DNA of 56,009 bases from a virus (taxonomy: Duplodnaviria; Heunggongvirae; Uroviricota; Caudoviricetes): the IMG/VR virus record IMGVR_UViG_2512047041_000008; one strand, 5' to 3'. The notes below the pieces were generated by a model. The model saw only the letters and a list, made by a program, of their open reading frames with translations. It ran no database searches and was not told where the DNA came from. Every line of letters starts with the position of its first letter. The stretch's first letter is position 1. Position numbers and translations under genes: made by a program. Below are positions 46,030-56,009 of the stretch, in pieces.

Positions 46030-46125
46030 TCAATCTTTTTTATCGGGATCAGGCTTCTTTTTAGGTAACTTCGGGGGCTTAACTTGCTGATGACTTTGCG
46101 TTCGGCGCGTAAGCCAGGGATGGTC
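46030..46125 (-). pseudogene. C-terminal tail of a DDE transposase gene, split from its body by IS600 copy 2
   Basis: Frame continues ...YYVKPKAD-HPWLTRRTQSHQQVKPPKLPKKKPDPDKKD* after removing the IS and one GTC copy. Confidence 0.6.
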
Positions 46126-46168
46126 TGAGGTGTACTGGCAATAGCGGACACAACCATTTGTTCTTTTT

Positions 46169-46987
46169 TTAAGCAGCCATCTGATGATATTTTTCCCTGA
46201 AGGCTGCCGGGGAGATATTCCCCAGACGAGAGTGACGACGCTGACGATTGTAGAAAATCTCAATGTATTCCCGTATTACTGAGATGGCTTCATCCCGGTT
46301 ATTAAAACGATAGTGGCTCAGGCTCTCATTTTTCAGCGTTCCCCAGAAGCTTTCCATCGGAGCGTTGTCGTAACAGTTACCTTTACGCGACATTGATGTT
46401 TTCAGACCAAACTGCTCCTGTATGACCCGGTAATCGTATGCGCAGTACTGTGAACCTCGATCAGAGTGGTGGATTAGCCCGGCAGGTGGGCGCTGGCTCC
46501 TGAGCGCCATAAACAGGGCTTTACCTGTCAGCTCTTTTGTCATGCGCTCTCCCATGGCGTAGCCGACAATTTCGCACGTATAAACATCTTTGATGCCAGC
46601 GAGGTACAACCATCCCTCCTGTGTGGCAACATACGTCAGGTCCGCCACCCAGACCTGATTTGGTGCTGTAGGAGTGAACGTCTGGTTCAGCAGATTTGGC
46701 GCAACTGGCAGATTGTGGTTCGGGTTCGTAGTCGCTCTGAACTTGCGTTTCTGCTTACAGCGTAGCCTTAGCTCCTTACGAAGACGTGCCAGTCGGTCAC
46801 GACCAACGATGATGCCATTCTCTGCCAGCTCCGTCTGGAGCCGCCGGGTTCCATATGTTTCGCGAGTGCGGATATGTGCCACCTTAATCTCCAGTTTTAG
46901 CCGCTCATCACTTTGTTTTCTGTCTGAGGGTTCATGCTGTACCCAGTTGTAATAACCGCTCCTGGATACACCAAATACCTGACACAT
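46169..46987 (-). CDS. IS600 transposase OrfB
   Basis: Identical to the copy 1 OrfB. Confidence 0.85.
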   Translation of the reverse strand: MCQVFGVSRSGYYNWVQHEPSDRKQSDERLKLEIKVAHIRTRETYGTRRLQTELAENGIIVGRDRLARLRKELRLRCKQKRKFRATTNPNHNLPVAPNLLNQTFTPTAPNQVWVADLTYVATQEGWLYLAGIKDVYTCEIVGYAMGERMTKELTGKALFMALRSQRPPAGLIHHSDRGSQYCAYDYRVIQEQFGLKTSMSRKGNCYDNAPMESFWGTLKNESLSHYRFNNRDEAISVIREYIEIFYNRQRRHSRLGNISPAAFREKYHQMAA

Positions 46988-47022
46988 CGCTTCAATGGGA
47001 AATTGTTGTCGCCATTGTTCGA

Positions 47023-47325
47023 TTAACGCGTATTTTTCAGCGACTCCTGTGCAAAATACGCTGTTGCTTTTTTTAATATATCTCGCTCAAGGCGAGCTTC
47101 ATTTAACGCCTTACGCAGTTGCAGAATTTCAGATTCCAGTTCAGCCACCGTGCGGGAACCAGGAGTACCGAGCCCTTTTCTGGCGGCGGTAACCCATTGT
47201 CCTAAAGTGCCTTCAGGAAGAGATAATCGGGAAGCGCCTTCGCTGATCGAAAGTTGATTTTCAAGAACCGTTCTGACAGCTTCGGCTTTGAACTCTTTAG
47301 AGTAACGTTGGTTTTTTCTGCTCAT
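47023..47325 (-). CDS. IS600 transposase OrfA
   Basis: Identical to the copy 1 OrfA. Confidence 0.85.
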   Translation of the reverse strand: MSRKNQRYSKEFKAEAVRTVLENQLSISEGASRLSLPEGTLGQWVTAARKGLGTPGSRTVAELESEILQLRKALNEARLERDILKKATAYFAQESLKNTR

Positions 47326-47389
47326 TATTAGCTCCTTCTGATGCCATTCTATTTCAGGAAGGAGTGTCCGTTAAACTCAGGCTACCTCA

Positions 47390-48610
47390 GTCAGCTTTAG
47401 GTTTAACATAGTATTTTGAGCGTAAATCAATACGGGCATTATCCACTCGTTCATGGACACTCTTTTCATCATCCAGTGGTATAGGCTCCGGGCCATCAAC
47501 ATACTTTTCCCAGCCCAGCGCTTTCCCGTCATACAGAACGTTAATTTCACCGTCAAAGTTCTCGCATACAGTAACAACCGAATGCCTAAGTCGATATCCC
47601 CGACCCTCACTGCGTACCTGAAACGCACTGCTTTTGTACTGGAAAGTGAGATTTTTAGACAGAACGCGCTTCGCCTGTAGGCTGAAGATATAACCCAGTT
47701 CCTCTTCAGAATGGTGCACATCAAGATGAGCATTATCAGTAGTACGAGGCGACGTAGCGAACCGGTTGTTATAGGCTTCAATAAAGGTCGGCAACCATGC
47801 ATTTGCTGTTTCAATATCACTGATATTCTGAAGCCGCATTTCTTTGACCAGCCTGTCCTGTAGTGTCTGATTGGCGCGCTCTACCCGCCCTTTTGCCTGC
47901 GGGCTGTTGGCATGGATTGGCTCGATGCCCAGTGTCTTTATCGCACGAGTGAACTGGGTCAGCTCACCTTCCCGCTCTGGGTTATTTACCCTGAATATAC
48001 TGTGTCTATCAGAGTAGAGAGCGAGCGGTACGCCATGATCATTAAGGTAACCCCGGAGGGTTTCCATGTAAGCCCGGGTTGTTTCAGCAGGCACAAAACG
48101 CAACGCCATCAACGCACTGGTGGCATCATCAATGAAAACGATCAGTGTACATCTGGGGCCTCGATTTTCAAACCAGTCATGAGGTGAGCCATCAATCTGG
48201 ATCAGTTCACCGTAAGATGGTCGTCGCATGCGGCGTTGATATATACGGGCAATTTTACGACGGCGTTCACGCCATAACCCCTCTTCTATCATCCACTTTC
48301 TGAGAGTTTCAACGGATAAAGATAAACCGTGTATCTCGCGCAATTTTTCGCACGCAAACGTAGGTCCAAAATCAGCGTAACGGCCTTTGAGGAGTGAAAT
48401 TACTGTTGCTCTGAATTCAGTAGAAAAGGAATTATTAGGACGCTTTCCACGTCGGTGGGAAACCAGACCAGAAGGCCCTTCATTTCTATACCGTTGCACC
48501 AGACGTTTAACCTGCCGAATAGAAATGCCAATGCGTGCCGCAGCTTGTTCCTGAATAATCTGAAGTCGGTGGAGTTCCTTATGACTCATCGTAACAGTCT
48601 CTTTGATCAT
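47390..48610 (-). pseudogene. DDE transposase (HTH plus rve-type core; IS481/ISNCY-like, family uncertain), 3' end truncated by IS600
   Basis: 407-aa ORF with D...D...E spacing (IQIDGS, YSDRHS, RVERAN); its stop codon is formed by the IS600 terminus. Confidence 0.65.
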
Positions 48611-48944
48611 GAAAAATCCCCCAGAGAATTGTCTGGGGACATTTTAGAATGGTTCAAAGGGGACATTACAGCTTGGTGTTAACAATAGCCTGCTTCTCCG
48701 TGCCTTTCGGCACGTAAGAGGCTAACCTACATGTGTCTAGCATGAAATTGGCCTCAGATTAATGTTAAGCGTCTTGCAGGACGCGTAATGTTAACTGGGG
48801 CTTTTCTCTATCTGCCGTTGGTGTCCATGCCCGAGGCAGATAGCCTCAAGCACCCGCAGTCATTCTACTTAACTAAGATTTCCCCGCAAACCGTTTTTGT
48901 CCAGCACAGTAAATATCCAACTAAACCAATGGAGTTCGCTGTAT

Positions 48945-49163
48945 TTACCGCCAGTATTCAATGCACATGACCGCCATGAACACCCCTAAAAAAAGGGCAT
49001 TTATATATCCAAATATTAATATCAAAACATCAACTTTTTCCATATACCTTGCTGTGAAGATGATGGGCATACATGATGCGAACAACCAGAACGCAACAAA
49101 CAAAAACTGCAATGCGTTTTTCATTATTCCTCCTACAATCAATGTGCAATTACATTTAAACAC
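48945..49163 (-). CDS. Hypothetical small membrane protein
   Basis: 72-aa hydrophobic ORF; weak support. Confidence 0.3.
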   Translation of the reverse strand: MFKCNCTLIVGGIMKNALQFLFVAFWLFASCMPIIFTARYMEKVDVLILIFGYINALFLGVFMAVMCIEYWR

Positions 49164-50276
49164 ACCTCAATTTGGCCGGACATATAAATATCTAAACCAG
49201 AAAAAATCACTTACATAGCGTTACAAACTCTTTAGTCTAAAGGTTCATCGTAAAACATTCCCCATACTTATCAGTCCGTTCCGCGCCAGGTAGCTCATTG
49301 CCTTATCTGGCAACCTGTAATCAGGTTTCCGCTTTTTCAGTTGGCTGGTCGTTTAACCGACATAGTTAATCCATTAATCTAGTTGCCGGATGTTGGTGGA
49401 TTTTCGCGTTTTAGTTGTTCATAAAAGTGCACAGCTTTAACCAGTTCTTCTGATGTAACTGGGACTGGTGAGGCAGTGAATAAGGCCTGAATTTGATAGT
49501 TCGGCCTGTCGTTACAATCCTCTTTTTTCGGTACATATTTCCAGTCACCAGACCACTACTTCCCCTGAAAGTCCGTAACGCCTTTTTTCACGTAGCGATA
49601 TCGCCATGCCACTGGTTTTGCTTGCCCCGCCGTTTCATGCCCTTCCTGATAATTAATCTCGCTCATTCATCGCCCCACTCATCACAATATGCTTCGACCG
49701 GAGTTTTTCCCGCTTCATAGTCATCACGCTAGGATTCGACATCAGCAGCACTTCCACCGCGTAACTCACCATAGTCCATTAATAGTTCATCCCGCTCTTC
49801 AAAACTGATGTTATATTTAGCTGAACAAAAATCAGCCACTTTGTTCTTCCTCATCGTCTTTTATTTCGTGGTATGAGTAATTGCAGTAGTTAAAGAAAAT
49901 TTCTTATGCTCCGTCATGAATTTCCTCAGGTGTTGCGTCATCGTCCACTTCGAATACATCCTCAAAATCTCCACCAGCTATTCCCGTTTCAATAATAATT
50001 TTGAACTTTCGCATTTCACTACCGCCCTTTCGGGCGGCCTCCTGATGTTCTGAGGGTGCAGAAATCCATCCGGTTAAGGATTAAATTTTATTTACAGAAC
50101 TGAATTTAATTATTCAGATATACGTATCTGTAGCCTTACGAATCTACTCACTGGATGCCTCTTTCATAAAAATAATCCAGTGGGTTTTATCGTTTTTTCC
50201 CTGTTCGTTGACAGATAACAGGTTTTCTGTCTGTCAGTGCCAGAATCTGGCTTACCGGTATTTGCGTTTCATTCCA

Positions 50277-50633
50277 TTAAAAAATCAGAACGCCGTGCGG
50301 CCTCAACACCCGAAAGGCTTCTTTAAATCTCTGTCGCGAATCATCACGCCAGGCATCTTTATTCAGCCGTCCATATTTCTTTCCCATCCAGGCGTTATCA
50401 CCAACACTCTCAAGATGCGGAGGGTCTAATACAACCATCGAAAAAGATGCGTCTGCAAATGATAATGCACGAAAATCTGCGATAATGTCAGGGCTGATAA
50501 TCAAGCGTCTCCCATTGCGTAATGTGTATCCTTCTTTTCTGATATCGCTGAATATCGCCCGTTCGTCAGACTTATCGAACCAGAACATGCGGCTGCCACA
50601 GCACATATCAAGAATGGTTGCCGGTGCACTCAC
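50277..50633 (-). CDS. DNA methyltransferase-like protein (short, possibly truncated)
   Basis: SAM-binding-like DMCCGS and catalytic DPPH motifs; only 118 aa. Confidence 0.5.
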   Translation of the reverse strand: MSAPATILDMCCGSRMFWFDKSDERAIFSDIRKEGYTLRNGRRLIISPDIIADFRALSFADASFSMVVLDPPHLESVGDNAWMGKKYGRLNKDAWRDDSRQRFKEAFRVLRPHGVLIF

Positions 50634-51052
50634 TGCGCCACGTCCTGAAAATTACCCTGATAGAAAGCCAGTATGCGCTGCATAACTTCGCTCTTCCGGC
50701 ACTCGCGACAGATTATGTTTAGGCGACTGTCGTAGCGACGTATTTCTCCGTCAGGTGATGACCAGATAAGGTCCGGATCAACCACAGCAGGTTTCTTCAC
50801 CTTTGCCCTCGAGAGTTTTTTGCGGGCGTTTTGCCAGTCCTTACGCGCCTGTTCAGAGGGGAATAACCCGTAGCCGGAGTTGTATACATCGCCACTGGCT
50901 ACCAGCTCTCTGGCAAGAACGCTCATCAGATATCTAGTCGCACCTGTTTTAGCTTCCAGTTGCCGTAACGTCTCACGGCCGCTCTGGCGCACGAGTTCCA
51001 CCACCTGCCATTTAATTTTTTCCCGCTCTTCTTGTGTAAAAACTTTTGCCAC
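50630..51052 (-). CDS. Hypothetical phage protein downstream of the replication gene
   Basis: 140-aa ORF overlapping the methyltransferase start. Confidence 0.45.
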   Translation of the reverse strand: MAKVFTQEEREKIKWQVVELVRQSGRETLRQLEAKTGATRYLMSVLARELVASGDVYNSGYGLFPSEQARKDWQNARKKLSRAKVKKPAVVDPDLIWSSPDGEIRRYDSRLNIICRECRKSEVMQRILAFYQGNFQDVAQ

Positions 51053-51092
51053 AAGTCCCCCTTAAAATTACCTCATGACCTGAAATCAACAC

Positions 51093-52112
51093 TTATCCTC
51101 TGAAACCAGGCGGAATTTCTGTATCCGGTTCAGAAATATGATTAACACAACGCTGTACAGGTGAACGTCCCAGGCGGATGACCAGTTCGTCCCATTTTTC
51201 GCGGAGCTTTGACGGGCTCATGATGTTTTTTACCCAGAATGGATCTCGCTGAACCCGACCAAACATTTCGCAAATTTGTCTGTGGCTTCTGCCATCCAGC
51301 ATCCGCATTGTGCGCACGTCATTGGCCCAGGCAGTCCAGTTAGGCTCTTTTGGTCGCATGATCTCGCCATCATCACTGGCTGCCTGTTCGTAGAGACCCA
51401 CGATCCGCCCCCAGATCCACTGCGCACACGCCAAATCCTCCCTGCTACCCCACTGGCGTTTTTTCGCACTAAACACAACCGCGTCGGAGTTCCGGGTTAA
51501 AAAATCCTGTTCAGTCGTCTGCGGGTCCGGTTGCGAAGCTTCCGGACGAAAAGTGTTTTTATTCTCTGTAGTAATCTCTGTTGTATTCTCTGTAAGATCA
51601 TCAGGCCATTTTGACCCGATGACATTGGGTCGTTTTGAACCAATGGAGCGTTTCATTTTGACCTCTTCCATCGTGTCATTTTGACCTGATGGAGCGGCGC
51701 ATTTTGAACCGATGGATTCGCTCAATTTGCCACCATCTAAAAGCTCGCTCCCATAGTTGATCGTGTAGAAATTGGTCATATCGCGCTTTGATTTATTGAG
51801 CTTTTCACAACGCAAAAGCCCCAGCGTTTTCAGACTTGCAAACGCGCGCTTTAACGTTGACTCTGACCAGAATGGGAACTGTTCCAGCCATTGTTCCGTT
51901 GTGTTATAAATCCAGCGAACACCATCACATTCCATGCCGGAGTTGGTATCTCTCAACCAGTAGTGCAGTTGTTGCAAAACAATGGCTTCGTTTAAGCCAA
52001 TTTTCATTGCCAGCTGCGTGTTTATAACCAGTGGGCGTTCAGCAAAAAGAAGGCTCATAATTCCATCCAGCTTTTTGTTGGTATTGCTGTCGATACGCAA
52101 GTTTGAAAGCAA
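51093..52112 (-). CDS. Replication initiation protein (lambda O-like role) with internal iterons
   Basis: 339 aa; iteron array inside the gene, as for lambda ori within O; repeated IGSK peptide motifs encoded by the iterons. Confidence 0.6.
   Translation of the reverse strand: MLSNLRIDSNTNKKLDGIMSLLFAERPLVINTQLAMKIGLNEAIVLQQLHYWLRDTNSGMECDGVRWIYNTTEQWLEQFPFWSESTLKRAFASLKTLGLLRCEKLNKSKRDMTNFYTINYGSELLDGGKLSESIGSKCAAPSGQNDTMEEVKMKRSIGSKRPNVIGSKWPDDLTENTTEITTENKNTFRPEASQPDPQTTEQDFLTRNSDAVVFSAKKRQWGSREDLACAQWIWGRIVGLYEQAASDDGEIMRPKEPNWTAWANDVRTMRMLDGRSHRQICEMFGRVQRDPFWVKNIMSPSKLREKWDELVIRLGRSPVQRCVNHISEPDTEIPPGFRG
51605..51740. repeat. Putative replication origin: about 6 direct iterons (core ATTTTGA(A/C)C, period 22-24 bp) within the replication gene
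   Basis: Cores at about 51609, 51633, 51655, 51678, 51702, 51724. Confidence 0.6.
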
Positions 52113-52452
52113 TTGCTTTTTCTATAAGTTCGTCAGTTTCACGATCCACTACGGCAGGATCAGCAAAAAGCAGTCCGGACTCCACCACATCGCCATATTC
52201 TTTGTTTAACCCGGCGATCATGCACGTGATGCTTTTTCCGTCAGTAATTTCACGATACAACCTGAAATCATTAATCCGGATAGCCTCCATAATTGCAGGC
52301 ACTAGCGCCGTGAACTTTTCACGCTTATCCCTGGTGTCGATAGCCTTCCAGCGTTCAAATATCTTCACTCGATTAACGCCAAGCGCTCGCTGATCAATCG
52401 CGCCACCTTCATATGTGACACGCTGAACATCGATGTTCGGGCGCTCTTTCAA
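52039..52452 (-). CDS. Hypothetical phage protein; start lies 18 bp from the IS629-like copy 3 boundary (possibly 5'-truncated)
   Basis: 137-aa ORF overlapping the replication gene start. Confidence 0.35.
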   Translation of the reverse strand: MKERPNIDVQRVTYEGGAIDQRALGVNRVKIFERWKAIDTRDKREKFTALVPAIMEAIRINDFRLYREITDGKSITCMIAGLNKEYGDVVESGLLFADPAVVDRETDELIEKAIAFKLAYRQQYQQKAGWNYEPSFC

Positions 52453-52511
52453 AGCCCAGAATGCTTCAGTGAACCGCCCCGGGTTTCCTGGAGAGTGTTT
52501 TATCTGTGAAC

Positions 52512-53399
52512 TCAGGCTGCCAGATCATTGTTTCCGATGGAAGCATAATAAGCTTTTTCTGCTTCTGCCGGAGGAGTATGGCCCAGCCTTCCCAGTAATC
52601 GTCGATTGTTATACCAGTCCACCCACGTTAGTGTGGCCAGTTCCACTTCTGCACGGTTTTTCCAGCTCTTACGGTGTATTACCTCCGCTTTGTAAAGACC
52701 ATTGATGCTCTCAGCCATCGCGTTGTCATACGAGTCGCCTGTACTTCCTGTTGATGCCAGTAATCCGGCTTCTTTTAGTCGCTCCGTATAGGCCAGTGAC
52801 ACATACTGAGAGCCTTTATCGCTGTGATGGATGGTGCCAGACGGACGACGGGCCCACAACGCCTGCTCCAGCGCATCCAGCACGAATGTCGTTTCCATAG
52901 ACGATGAGACCCGCCACCCCACGATGTATCCAGCAAACACATCAATGATAAACGCCACATAGACGAAGCCCTGCCATGTGCTGACGTAAGTAAAATCAGC
53001 CACCCACAGCTGGTCAGGACGTTCTGCCACGAACTGACGGTTTACGCGGTCACCTGTGGCAACGGTTTTCCGGCTGACGGTAGTGCGGACCTTTTTACCC
53101 CGGAGAACACCGGCAAGTCCCATAACCGCCATGAGGCGCGCCACTGTACATCTGGCCACCCTGATTCCTTCCCGTAACAACTGACGCCAGACTTTACGCA
53201 CACCGTACACCTGATGATTTTCATCGTATACGCGCTGTATCTCTCTCTTCAGCCAGTCATCGCGCTGCGCACGGGTACAGCGTTTATCAGGATGATGCCG
53301 CTGCTGCTGACAGTGGTAATACGTTGACGGGGCAATATGCAGTTCACTGCATACAGGTCCGACCCCGTACTGCTCACGCAGCTTATCCAGCAGTGGCAT
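52512..53399 (-). CDS. IS629-like transposase OrfB (variant)
   Basis: 295 aa, DDE. Confidence 0.8.
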   Translation of the reverse strand: MPLLDKLREQYGVGPVCSELHIAPSTYYHCQQQRHHPDKRCTRAQRDDWLKREIQRVYDENHQVYGVRKVWRQLLREGIRVARCTVARLMAVMGLAGVLRGKKVRTTVSRKTVATGDRVNRQFVAERPDQLWVADFTYVSTWQGFVYVAFIIDVFAGYIVGWRVSSSMETTFVLDALEQALWARRPSGTIHHSDKGSQYVSLAYTERLKEAGLLASTGSTGDSYDNAMAESINGLYKAEVIHRKSWKNRAEVELATLTWVDWYNNRRLLGRLGHTPPAEAEKAYYASIGNNDLAA

Positions 53400-53725
53400 T
53401 ATTTTTTCCAGAGGCGGTCGAACTCCGCCTTCGCAAAATAAGCGGAAGCCTGGCGAAGGATATCGTTACTGCGGCGCAGTTCACGATTTTCACGTTCCAG
53501 CTCTTTCAGACGCTGACGTTCAGCGGTGGTGAGCCCACCATCACCGCCCCCGGTATCCCGCTCATGCTGGCGAACCCAGACACGCAGAGTCTCTGGCGTA
53601 CAGCCAGTCTTTGGAGCAATGGAACAAATTGCCGCCCATTGTGAGTCATATTCGTCCTGACTTTCCAGAACCATACGAACTGCCCGTTGACGGACTTCGG
53701 GGGAAAAACGTGTATTTTTAGTCAT
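53399..53725 (-). CDS. IS629-like transposase OrfA (variant)
   Basis: 108 aa, a few substitutions relative to copies 1 and 2. Confidence 0.8.
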
Positions 53726-53828
53726 CCTGTTTACCTCTTTCTCAGGAAGTTTAGTCTCCAGGATTCCCGGGGCGGTTCAGAACGGTCATCACGAAATCAC
53801 ATCCACCAGCAGGACGTGTGACCATCTA

Positions 53829-54371
53829 ATGATCGACCTTGAAACCATGGGAAAAAATCCTGATGCCCCGATCATCTCAATAGGTGCAATATTTTTCGAT
53901 CCGCAAACCGGAGATATGGGACCGGAATTTAGTAAGACTATCGATCTGGAAACTGCTGGCGGAGTCATTGATCGGGACACCATTAAATGGTGGCTTAAGC
54001 AATCACGCGAAGCGCAATCTGCCATTATGACCGATGAAATCCCGTTAGATGATGCACTGTTACAATTGCGAGAATTTATCGACGAAAACTCCGGTGAATT
54101 TTTTGTTCAGGTTTGGGGAAATGGAGCCAACTTCGACAACACGATTTTGCGCCGTTCATACGAACGGCAGGGGATCCCCTGCCCGTGGCGTTACTACAAC
54201 GATCGCGATGTACGCACAATCGTTGAGCTGGGGAAAGCCATAGACTTCGATGCCAGAACGGCTATTCCATTCGAAGGTGAGCGCCATAATGCACTTGATG
54301 ACGCCCGTTACCAGGCAAAATACGTTTCAGTTATCTGGCAAAAACTGATCCCGAGTCAGGCTGATTCTTAA
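53829..54371 (+). CDS. 3'-5' exonuclease, DEDD (DnaQ-like) superfamily
   Basis: Exo I-like DLETMG and Exo III-like HNALDDARY motifs; co-oriented with int. Confidence 0.7.
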   Translation: MIDLETMGKNPDAPIISIGAIFFDPQTGDMGPEFSKTIDLETAGGVIDRDTIKWWLKQSREAQSAIMTDEIPLDDALLQLREFIDENSGEFFVQVWGNGANFDNTILRRSYERQGIPCPWRYYNDRDVRTIVELGKAIDFDARTAIPFEGERHNALDDARYQAKYVSVIWQKLIPSQADS

Positions 54372-54443
54372 TGTTCAACTGTCGCCGGTTGTGACTGGTA
54401 TTCTGCAACCGGCGCTCGTCTGATGTAAGAGATAAAGAAATCG

Positions 54444-54694
54444 ATGAGCGAAGTAATCATGATTGTCTCTCCCGGCAAATGGGTATCCGAAGAGCAGTTA
54501 ATTGCGCTGAAAGGAATAAAAAAGGTACGTTAAAAAAGGCCCGGGAAAAATCGTTTATGGAAGGAAGGGAATATAAGCATGTCGCTCATGACGGTATGCC
54601 ATGGGATAACAGTCCATGCTTTTACAACCTGGAAGAAATTGATCGCTGGATTGAGCGCCAGGCATCAGCGAGACCAAGACGTCATCTTACTTGA
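54444..54694 (+). pseudogene. xis: Possible excisionase (xis) with a frameshift at an A6 run
   Basis: Frame 1 MSEVIMIVSPGKWVSEEQLIALKGIKK then frame 2 ...GTLKKAREKSFMEGREYKHV...; the GREY segment resembles lambda Xis DGREYLF; A-run at about 54519-54524. Confidence 0.35.
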
Positions 54695-54713
54695 CTAAAA
54701 ACCACACTAACTA

Positions 54714-56009
54714 ATGAGAGAAGTTGAAATGAAATATCCGACAGGCGTGGAAAACCATGGAGGGAAATTACGTATCTGGTTTGTTTATAAAGACGTAAGA
54801 GTCAGGGAAAATCTGGGGGTTCCTGACACAGCAAAAAACAGGCGCGTTGCAGGTGAACTACGCTCCTCTGTTTGTTACGCAATAAAAACTGGTGTTTTCG
54901 ACTATGCAAAACAGTTTCCCTCCTCACGCAATCTGGAAAAATTTGGTGAGGCCCGACAAGATTTAACCATAAAAGAACTGGCTGAAAAATTTCTGGCACT
55001 GAAAGAAACTGAAGTCGCCAAAACATCACTCAACACATACCGTGCCGTCATCAAAAATATCCTGAGCATAATCGGTGAAAAAAATCTTGCCTCATCGATT
55101 AATAAAGAAAAATTACTGGAGGTTCGTAAAGAGTTACTGACTGGATACCAGATCCCCAAAAGTAACTATATTGTTACACAACCAGGGAGATCGGCTGTAA
55201 CTGTAAATAATTACATGACAAATCTTAACGCCGTGTTCCAGTTTGGTGTTGATAACGGTTACCTGGCAGATAATCCGTTTAAGGGGATCTCGCCATTAAA
55301 GGAATCAAGAACCATTCCGGATCCTCTTTCGCGGGAAGAATTTATCCGTCTTATCGATGCGTGCAGAAATCAGCAAGCAAAAAATTTATGGTGTGTTTCT
55401 GTTTATACTGGAGTTCGCCCTGGTGAGCTGTGTGCACTTGGATGGGAGGACATAGATCTGAAAAATGGAACAATGATGATCAGGAGAAATTTAGCAAAAG
55501 ACCGTTTCACGGTACCAAAAACACAGGCGGGAACCAATCGGGTCATTCATCTTATTAAGCCAGCAATCGACGCTCTCCGGAGTCAGATGACATTAACGAG
55601 ACTGAGCAAAGAGCATATCATTGATGTTCACCTCAGAGAGTATGGCAGAACAGAAAAACAAAAATGCACCTTTGTTTTTCAACCTGAAGTGTCAGCGAGA
55701 GTAAAAAATTATGGTGACCATTTTACCGTTGACTCAATAAGGCAGATGTGGGACGCAGCGATAAAACGTGCCGGACTCCGCCATCGAAAATCATATCAGT
55801 CGAGACATACTTATGCCTGCTGGTCGCTGACAGCTGGTGCTAACCCGGCATTTATAGCAAACCAGATGGGCCATGCAGATGCGCAAATGGTATTTCAGGT
55901 ATACGGAAAATGGATGTCTGAAAACAATAATGCACAGGTAGCTTTGTTAAATACACAGTTAAGCGAGTTTGCCCCAACCATGCCCCATAACGAAGCAATG
56001 AAAAATTAA
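54714..56009 (+). CDS. int: Tyrosine integrase (phage integrase family)
   Basis: 431-aa ORF with C-terminal R...H-x-x-R...Y catalytic pattern; possible internal start MKYPTG; ends at the window edge. Confidence 0.85.
   Translation: MREVEMKYPTGVENHGGKLRIWFVYKDVRVRENLGVPDTAKNRRVAGELRSSVCYAIKTGVFDYAKQFPSSRNLEKFGEARQDLTIKELAEKFLALKETEVAKTSLNTYRAVIKNILSIIGEKNLASSINKEKLLEVRKELLTGYQIPKSNYIVTQPGRSAVTVNNYMTNLNAVFQFGVDNGYLADNPFKGISPLKESRTIPDPLSREEFIRLIDACRNQQAKNLWCVSVYTGVRPGELCALGWEDIDLKNGTMMIRRNLAKDRFTVPKTQAGTNRVIHLIKPAIDALRSQMTLTRLSKEHIIDVHLREYGRTEKQKCTFVFQPEVSARVKNYGDHFTVDSIRQMWDAAIKRAGLRHRKSYQSRHTYACWSLTAGANPAFIANQMGHADAQMVFQVYGKWMSENNNAQVALLNTQLSEFAPTMPHNEAMKN

Follow-up and report, generated by a model that had tools for sequence, protein, structure and literature searches.

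A one-base contraction in the predicted excisionase gene of a Qin-site lambdoid prophage of Escherichia coli

The stretch of DNA analysed here, 56,009 nt long and referred to as the window, carries at positions 54444–54694 a gene that its sequence identifies as an excisionase gene, xis, of the DUF1233/XisR type. We hold with high confidence that this xis of a Qin-site lambdoid prophage has been inactivated by the contraction of a run of seven adenines to six (A7 to A6, 54518–54523), and that the contraction is likely to be real, inherited and one lesion among many. The feature is already known, as RefSeq annotates the frameshifted xis in identical sequences. The gene, its two frames and the site of the deletion are arranged as follows:

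54444–54694, plus strand: probable xis pseudogene (DUF1233/XisR-type excisionase), 251 nt and not 252; the corrected translation matches PF06806 and PHROG 539.
54444–54533, plus strand: ORF1, which encodes the first 27 residues of Xis plus VR before it reaches a stop codon (29 aa, MSEVIMIVSPGKWVSEEQLIALKGIKKVR followed by the stop); it covers PF06806 positions 1–23 in a profile search.
54518–54523, plus strand: A6 run where one nucleotide has been lost, intact alleles having A7, as seen in the alignment with 10R and PhiR42_1.
54524–54694, plus strand: the last 56 codons of Xis, shifted to the −1 frame and contained in the mechanical ORF 54479–54694 (ORF2); ORF2 covers PF06806 positions 22–69 in the profile search.

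The frame that opens with the ATG at 54444 is interrupted after 29 codons by a stop at 54531–54533, and ORF2, read in the −1 frame with respect to ORF1, overlaps the latter at the A6 run. Inserting one A into the window restores a 252-nt ORF. Its translation, 83 aa long, agrees in every residue with WP_000005552.1 of E. coli 10R and with the excisionase of phage PhiR42_1. In the DNA alignment with these two intact relatives, which covers 291 nt of the window in 292 columns, nothing within the coding sequence differs except for the single-A gap; the window has A6 where they have A7, and with it the premature stop. The original prediction had likewise let the frame switch at an A6 run, which it set one base too far downstream, at 54519–54524. 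Another A6 run of xis follows 8 nt after the first, at 54532–54537, where the intact frame reads TTA AAA AAG; this further potential hotspot for insertions and deletions is unaltered in the window.

What does the corrected gene encode? Joined across the run, the protein matches PF06806 (DUF1233, ‘putative excisionase’) over positions 1–69 of 70 at E=1.6e-31, scoring 108.1 bits where the curated cutoff is 22 bits, and it matches PHROG 539 ‘excisionase’ over positions 1–79 of 80 at E=1.4e-35. The only solved structure found, PDB 2KVV (‘putative excisionase’), aligns over residues 7–73, so that the match spans the junction of the two frames; NCBIfam returned no model for the corrected protein. 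Since ORF1 and ORF2 match successive parts of PF06806 and the joined protein matches nearly the whole of it, the two-frame arrangement is not a product of chance. These comparisons bear out the original prediction, which had combined the two adjacent frames of 54444–54694 into one excisionase and had proposed setting the frame-corrected protein against excisionase families: the protein proves to be a full-length member of PF06806 and PHROG 539, with a structural match in 2KVV. One of the single-frame ORFs might have turned out to be a known protein in its own right, which would have spoken against a joined gene; each of them, however, matches solely its corresponding portion of the PF06806 family.

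Its homologues mark the intact protein as a putative recombination directionality factor, which would bind near the att site and steer Int to excision. A proposed course of its loss begins with replication slippage on the homopolymer, by which the A7 run would have lost one A. Translation from the ATG at 54444 would then halt after 29 codons, with only the first ~27 of the 83 Xis residues made, and the remaining 56 codons would be left in the −1 frame without a start signal of their own. The loss of most of the DNA-binding domain would presumably abolish Xis function, and the loss of Xis would in turn be expected to abolish Int-dependent excision.

The relation of this protein to known excisionases is of two kinds. 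Rac XisR (YdaQ) of E. coli K-12, for which experiments established that it promotes excision and binds attR (PMC4632033), also belongs to PF06806 and is likewise encoded directly upstream of an integrase gene. It shares 26% identity with the window protein over 62 residues, which argues against its being the orthologue, and the two prophages differ in their attachment sites, the window lying on the rspB side of the Qin site and Rac at ttcA. We therefore reject the orthology that the PGAP name ‘xisR’ suggests, given the low identity, the other prophage and the other attachment site; binding to att and stimulation of Int-mediated excision are predicted for the intact form of the protein from Rac XisR, a distant member of its family. 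The second comparison concerns lambda Xis, to which the original prediction had likened a ‘GREY’ segment of the protein. Lambda Xis does hold this tetrapeptide, and it resembles the window protein in being a small basic protein encoded beside int with the expected role of a recombination directionality factor. However, when the corrected protein was compared with lambda Xis by BLASTP, no similarity was detectable (E=9.5), and a Pfam search with the corrected protein gave no match to PF07825 (Exc) at E<=0.01. Lambda Xis itself belongs to PF07825 (E=1.2e-41) and PHROG 629, as opposed to PF06806 and PHROG 539, and at the sequence level the proposed kinship has to be rejected. The two proteins may share the winged-helix fold of lambda Xis.

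The neighbourhood of xis is that of an excisionase gene at a prophage end, with damage on its upstream side:

54729–56009, plus strand: tyrosine integrase gene, intact, 426 aa, the partner of xis; PF12167 (Arm DNA-binding) at E=3.7e-22 and PF00589 (Phage_integrase) at E=3.9e-18.
53781–54371, plus strand: 3′ remnant of the 3′-5′ exonuclease gene that usually precedes xis, truncated by an IS; PF16473 at E=3.8e-67.
52512–53725, minus strand: IS3-family (IS629-like) transposase orfAB bordering the truncated exonuclease gene; ORFs of 108 and 295 aa.

As had been predicted, the excisionase gene lies upstream of int. The two genes are on the same strand at the end of the prophage, the xis stop codon ending at 54694 and int starting at 54729 after a gap of 34 nt. 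The integrase is annotated as WP_000876958.1 in strains AR_0013, N32 and AF57, which match the window at 100% DNA identity throughout 54330–56009, and in relatives int is followed by rspB. WP_000005552.1 is carried by Qin-site and related lambdoid prophages and phages (for example 10R, PhiR42_1, HannyBb, Tritos and mEp460_ev081), and in the intact relatives the gene occupies the same position, in the order 3′-5′ exonuclease gene, xis, int. The exonuclease remnant of the window comprises the last 591 bp of a normally 2.4-kb gene, with homology to the strain 190 gene beginning at 53780, and PGAP describes it as ‘missing N-terminus’. The gap that separates the stop codon of the exonuclease gene from the start of xis contains a perfect 9-bp inverted repeat at 54383–54414 (CGCCGGTTG / CAACCGGCG, 14-nt loop), which has no T-run and is therefore not a canonical intrinsic terminator.

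Is the missing adenine a property of the genome or of its sequencing? DNA searches returned matches to the locus from thousands of E. coli genomes and from the genomes of four phages, and nearly all full-length matches span 502 nt, as against 501 in the window. All four of the phage genomes carrying the gene match over 502 nt, consistent with A7, and for PhiR42_1 the A7 run was confirmed by alignment. The A6 allele is rare: an 81-nt probe centred on the A-run matched 2576 complete E. coli genomes and was found exactly in eight of them, while about 2557 of the 2576 differ by roughly one position, all of the matches listed among these being 82 nt long, that is, A7. A probe with A8 matched no genome at >=99% identity (no exact match). 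The eight A6 genomes fall into five haplotypes over 54330–56009, and in every one of them RefSeq/PGAP labels the gene ‘xisR, excisionase family protein, frameshifted’. IAI39 is one SNP away from the window over this interval, and it has in common with the three identical genomes, AR_0013, N32 and AF57, a private SNP at 54701 and the context of an IS-truncated exonuclease gene. The recurrence of A6, of the window's haplotype and of the truncated neighbour gene in four separately deposited genomes indicates that the deletion is probably real and inherited, most likely a lesion of an IAI39-like lineage and not a sequencing error. The original prediction had named both a pseudogene and a sequencing error as explanations, and this sharing favours the former.

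Homopolymers are a classic site of indel errors in long reads, and a miscalled run would mean that the true genome has A7 and an intact xis. Errors of this type appear to exist in the dataset. A6 is also found on other backgrounds, in strains 190, MSHS 472, ET791 and O157:H7 Z1814, and three of these four (190, ET791 and O157:H7 Z1814) show extra frameshifts in adjacent genes (exonuclease, int, DUF1482), suggesting error-prone assemblies and that, in some of them, miscalls happen at the A-run itself. For the window, however, we regard a miscall as improbable. Its haplotype returns with A6 in IAI39, AR_0013, N32 and AF57, where the flanking DNA is near-identical and the IS context alike; IAI39 was, we assume, sequenced by Sanger shotgun, making an A6/A7 miscall unlikely there; and the adjoining int gene of the window is intact.

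A further possibility, which we consider very improbable, is that the two frames are functional as they stand, either by leaky or programmed recoding, in which a −1 slip would supply Xis at a low, tuned level, or by an A6/A7 phase-variable switch of excision competence. In favour of this idea speaks the sequence at the junction: together with G54524, the A6 run forms the heptamer A_AAA_AAG (54518–54524), which is slippery and in phase with ORF1, and a −1 slip on it would yield the intact 83-aa Xis, identical in amino acids to WP_000005552.1. As A_AA.A_AA.G, this motif ranks among the most shift-prone in E. coli (PMC4066793). The A6 allele has, moreover, arisen on at least five haplotypes. However, the two-frame arrangement is not conserved, being present in 8 of the 2576 genomes while the others have an in-frame A7 or variants and the four phage genomes have the A7 length. 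Nor is there a stimulatory structure in the 77 nt of downstream RNA at 54524–54600, which fold worse than shuffled controls: their MFE is −10.1 kcal/mol, the shuffles average −13.9 (z=+1.59), and 194 of the 200 shuffles gave a fold at least as stable. An SD sequence stimulates −1 shifts at a spacing of 10–14 nt, as known from studies of dnaX, whereas the only SD-like element here, AAGGA at 54511–54515, ends 2 nt before the heptamer and is thus too near. Without stimulators, A_AAA_AAG shifts at about 0.3%, and even the best 3′ context raises this to no more than about 3.7% (PMC4066793). The −1 sites of dnaX and of the IS3 family have the identical heptamer, and in the window it stands in the correct phase, but unlike those sites the window has no downstream hairpin or pseudoknot, no correctly spaced SD and no conservation among homologues. 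A programmed −1 frameshift is accordingly rejected for its lack of conservation, the missing downstream structure and the low unstimulated efficiency (PMC4066793). The same holds for a phase-variable A-run in the manner of a contingency locus, which calls for length variation in both directions: the run occurs as A7, commonly, or as A6, in eight genomes, and the A8 probe came back empty. The surrounding prophage is in any case defective, so that little is left for a switch to control.

The A_AAA_AAG site is a by-product of the deletion, and at best the A6 allele would allow trace leakiness of full-length Xis. It is hardly to be expected that the ‘pseudogene’ yields some 0.3–4% of authentic full-length Xis by −1 slippage or reverts from A6 to A7 appreciably often, in which case excision in this lineage would be throttled, not abolished. 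The site makes a neat example of an indel that ribosomal slippage could, in principle, partly rescue, and nothing suggests selection for it.

Finally, we would like to place the inactivated xis, as we read it, in the context of the prophage. The window is a whole Qin-site lambdoid prophage of E. coli, extending from ydfJ, an MFS transporter gene at 1–1284, through tail, head and lysis genes to the integrase gene, whose stop codon forms the other end. Genes for the tail (J, tape measure), the head and lysis are apparently full-length, while the early region is riddled with IS elements. On the side away from the exonuclease remnant, the IS629-like element borders a 5′-truncated ydaT-like gene (52039–52470). 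Relative to strain 190, the dicB-ydfD region, which precedes the exonuclease gene, and ~1.8 kb of the exonuclease gene itself are absent, suggesting that the IS629-like insertion came with a deletion in the early region. Just upstream of these lesions there are an IS600, an ISNCY remnant and more frameshifted ORFs. With its IS insertions, truncated genes and lost early region, the prophage is defective, and the xis lesion is one of many. It is ordinary prophage decay: the homopolymer contraction in xis is a further inactivating lesion where IS insertions and deletions have already disabled the prophage, in keeping with the way E. coli prophages are commonly domesticated and decay. The practical value of the finding lies in annotation, where the two short ORFs are to be merged into one frameshifted excisionase pseudogene, as RefSeq does.

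Comparison with the individual strains brought out some further variation in this part of the prophage. The transposase at 52512–53725 is annotated in N32 as ‘IS3 family transposase, programmed frameshift’. In IAI39, AR_0013 and AF57, a group II intron (ltrA reverse transcriptase/maturase) sits inside the IS629-like element, at the equivalent of ~52500–53780; in the window and in N32 the element is uninterrupted. The N32 annotation also lists two further decayed ORFs upstream: at ~49245–49666 a hypothetical protein that carries both a frameshift and an internal stop, and at ~49832–50014 a DUF7167 protein interrupted by an internal stop. Positions 1–25000 and 46122–56009 of the window are each 100% identical to N32, yet there they lie ~160 kb apart on opposite strands. 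The breakpoint in N32 coincides with the outer end of one IS600 copy (transposase 46169–47325), which indicates that strains identical in other respects differ by a rearrangement bounded by IS600.
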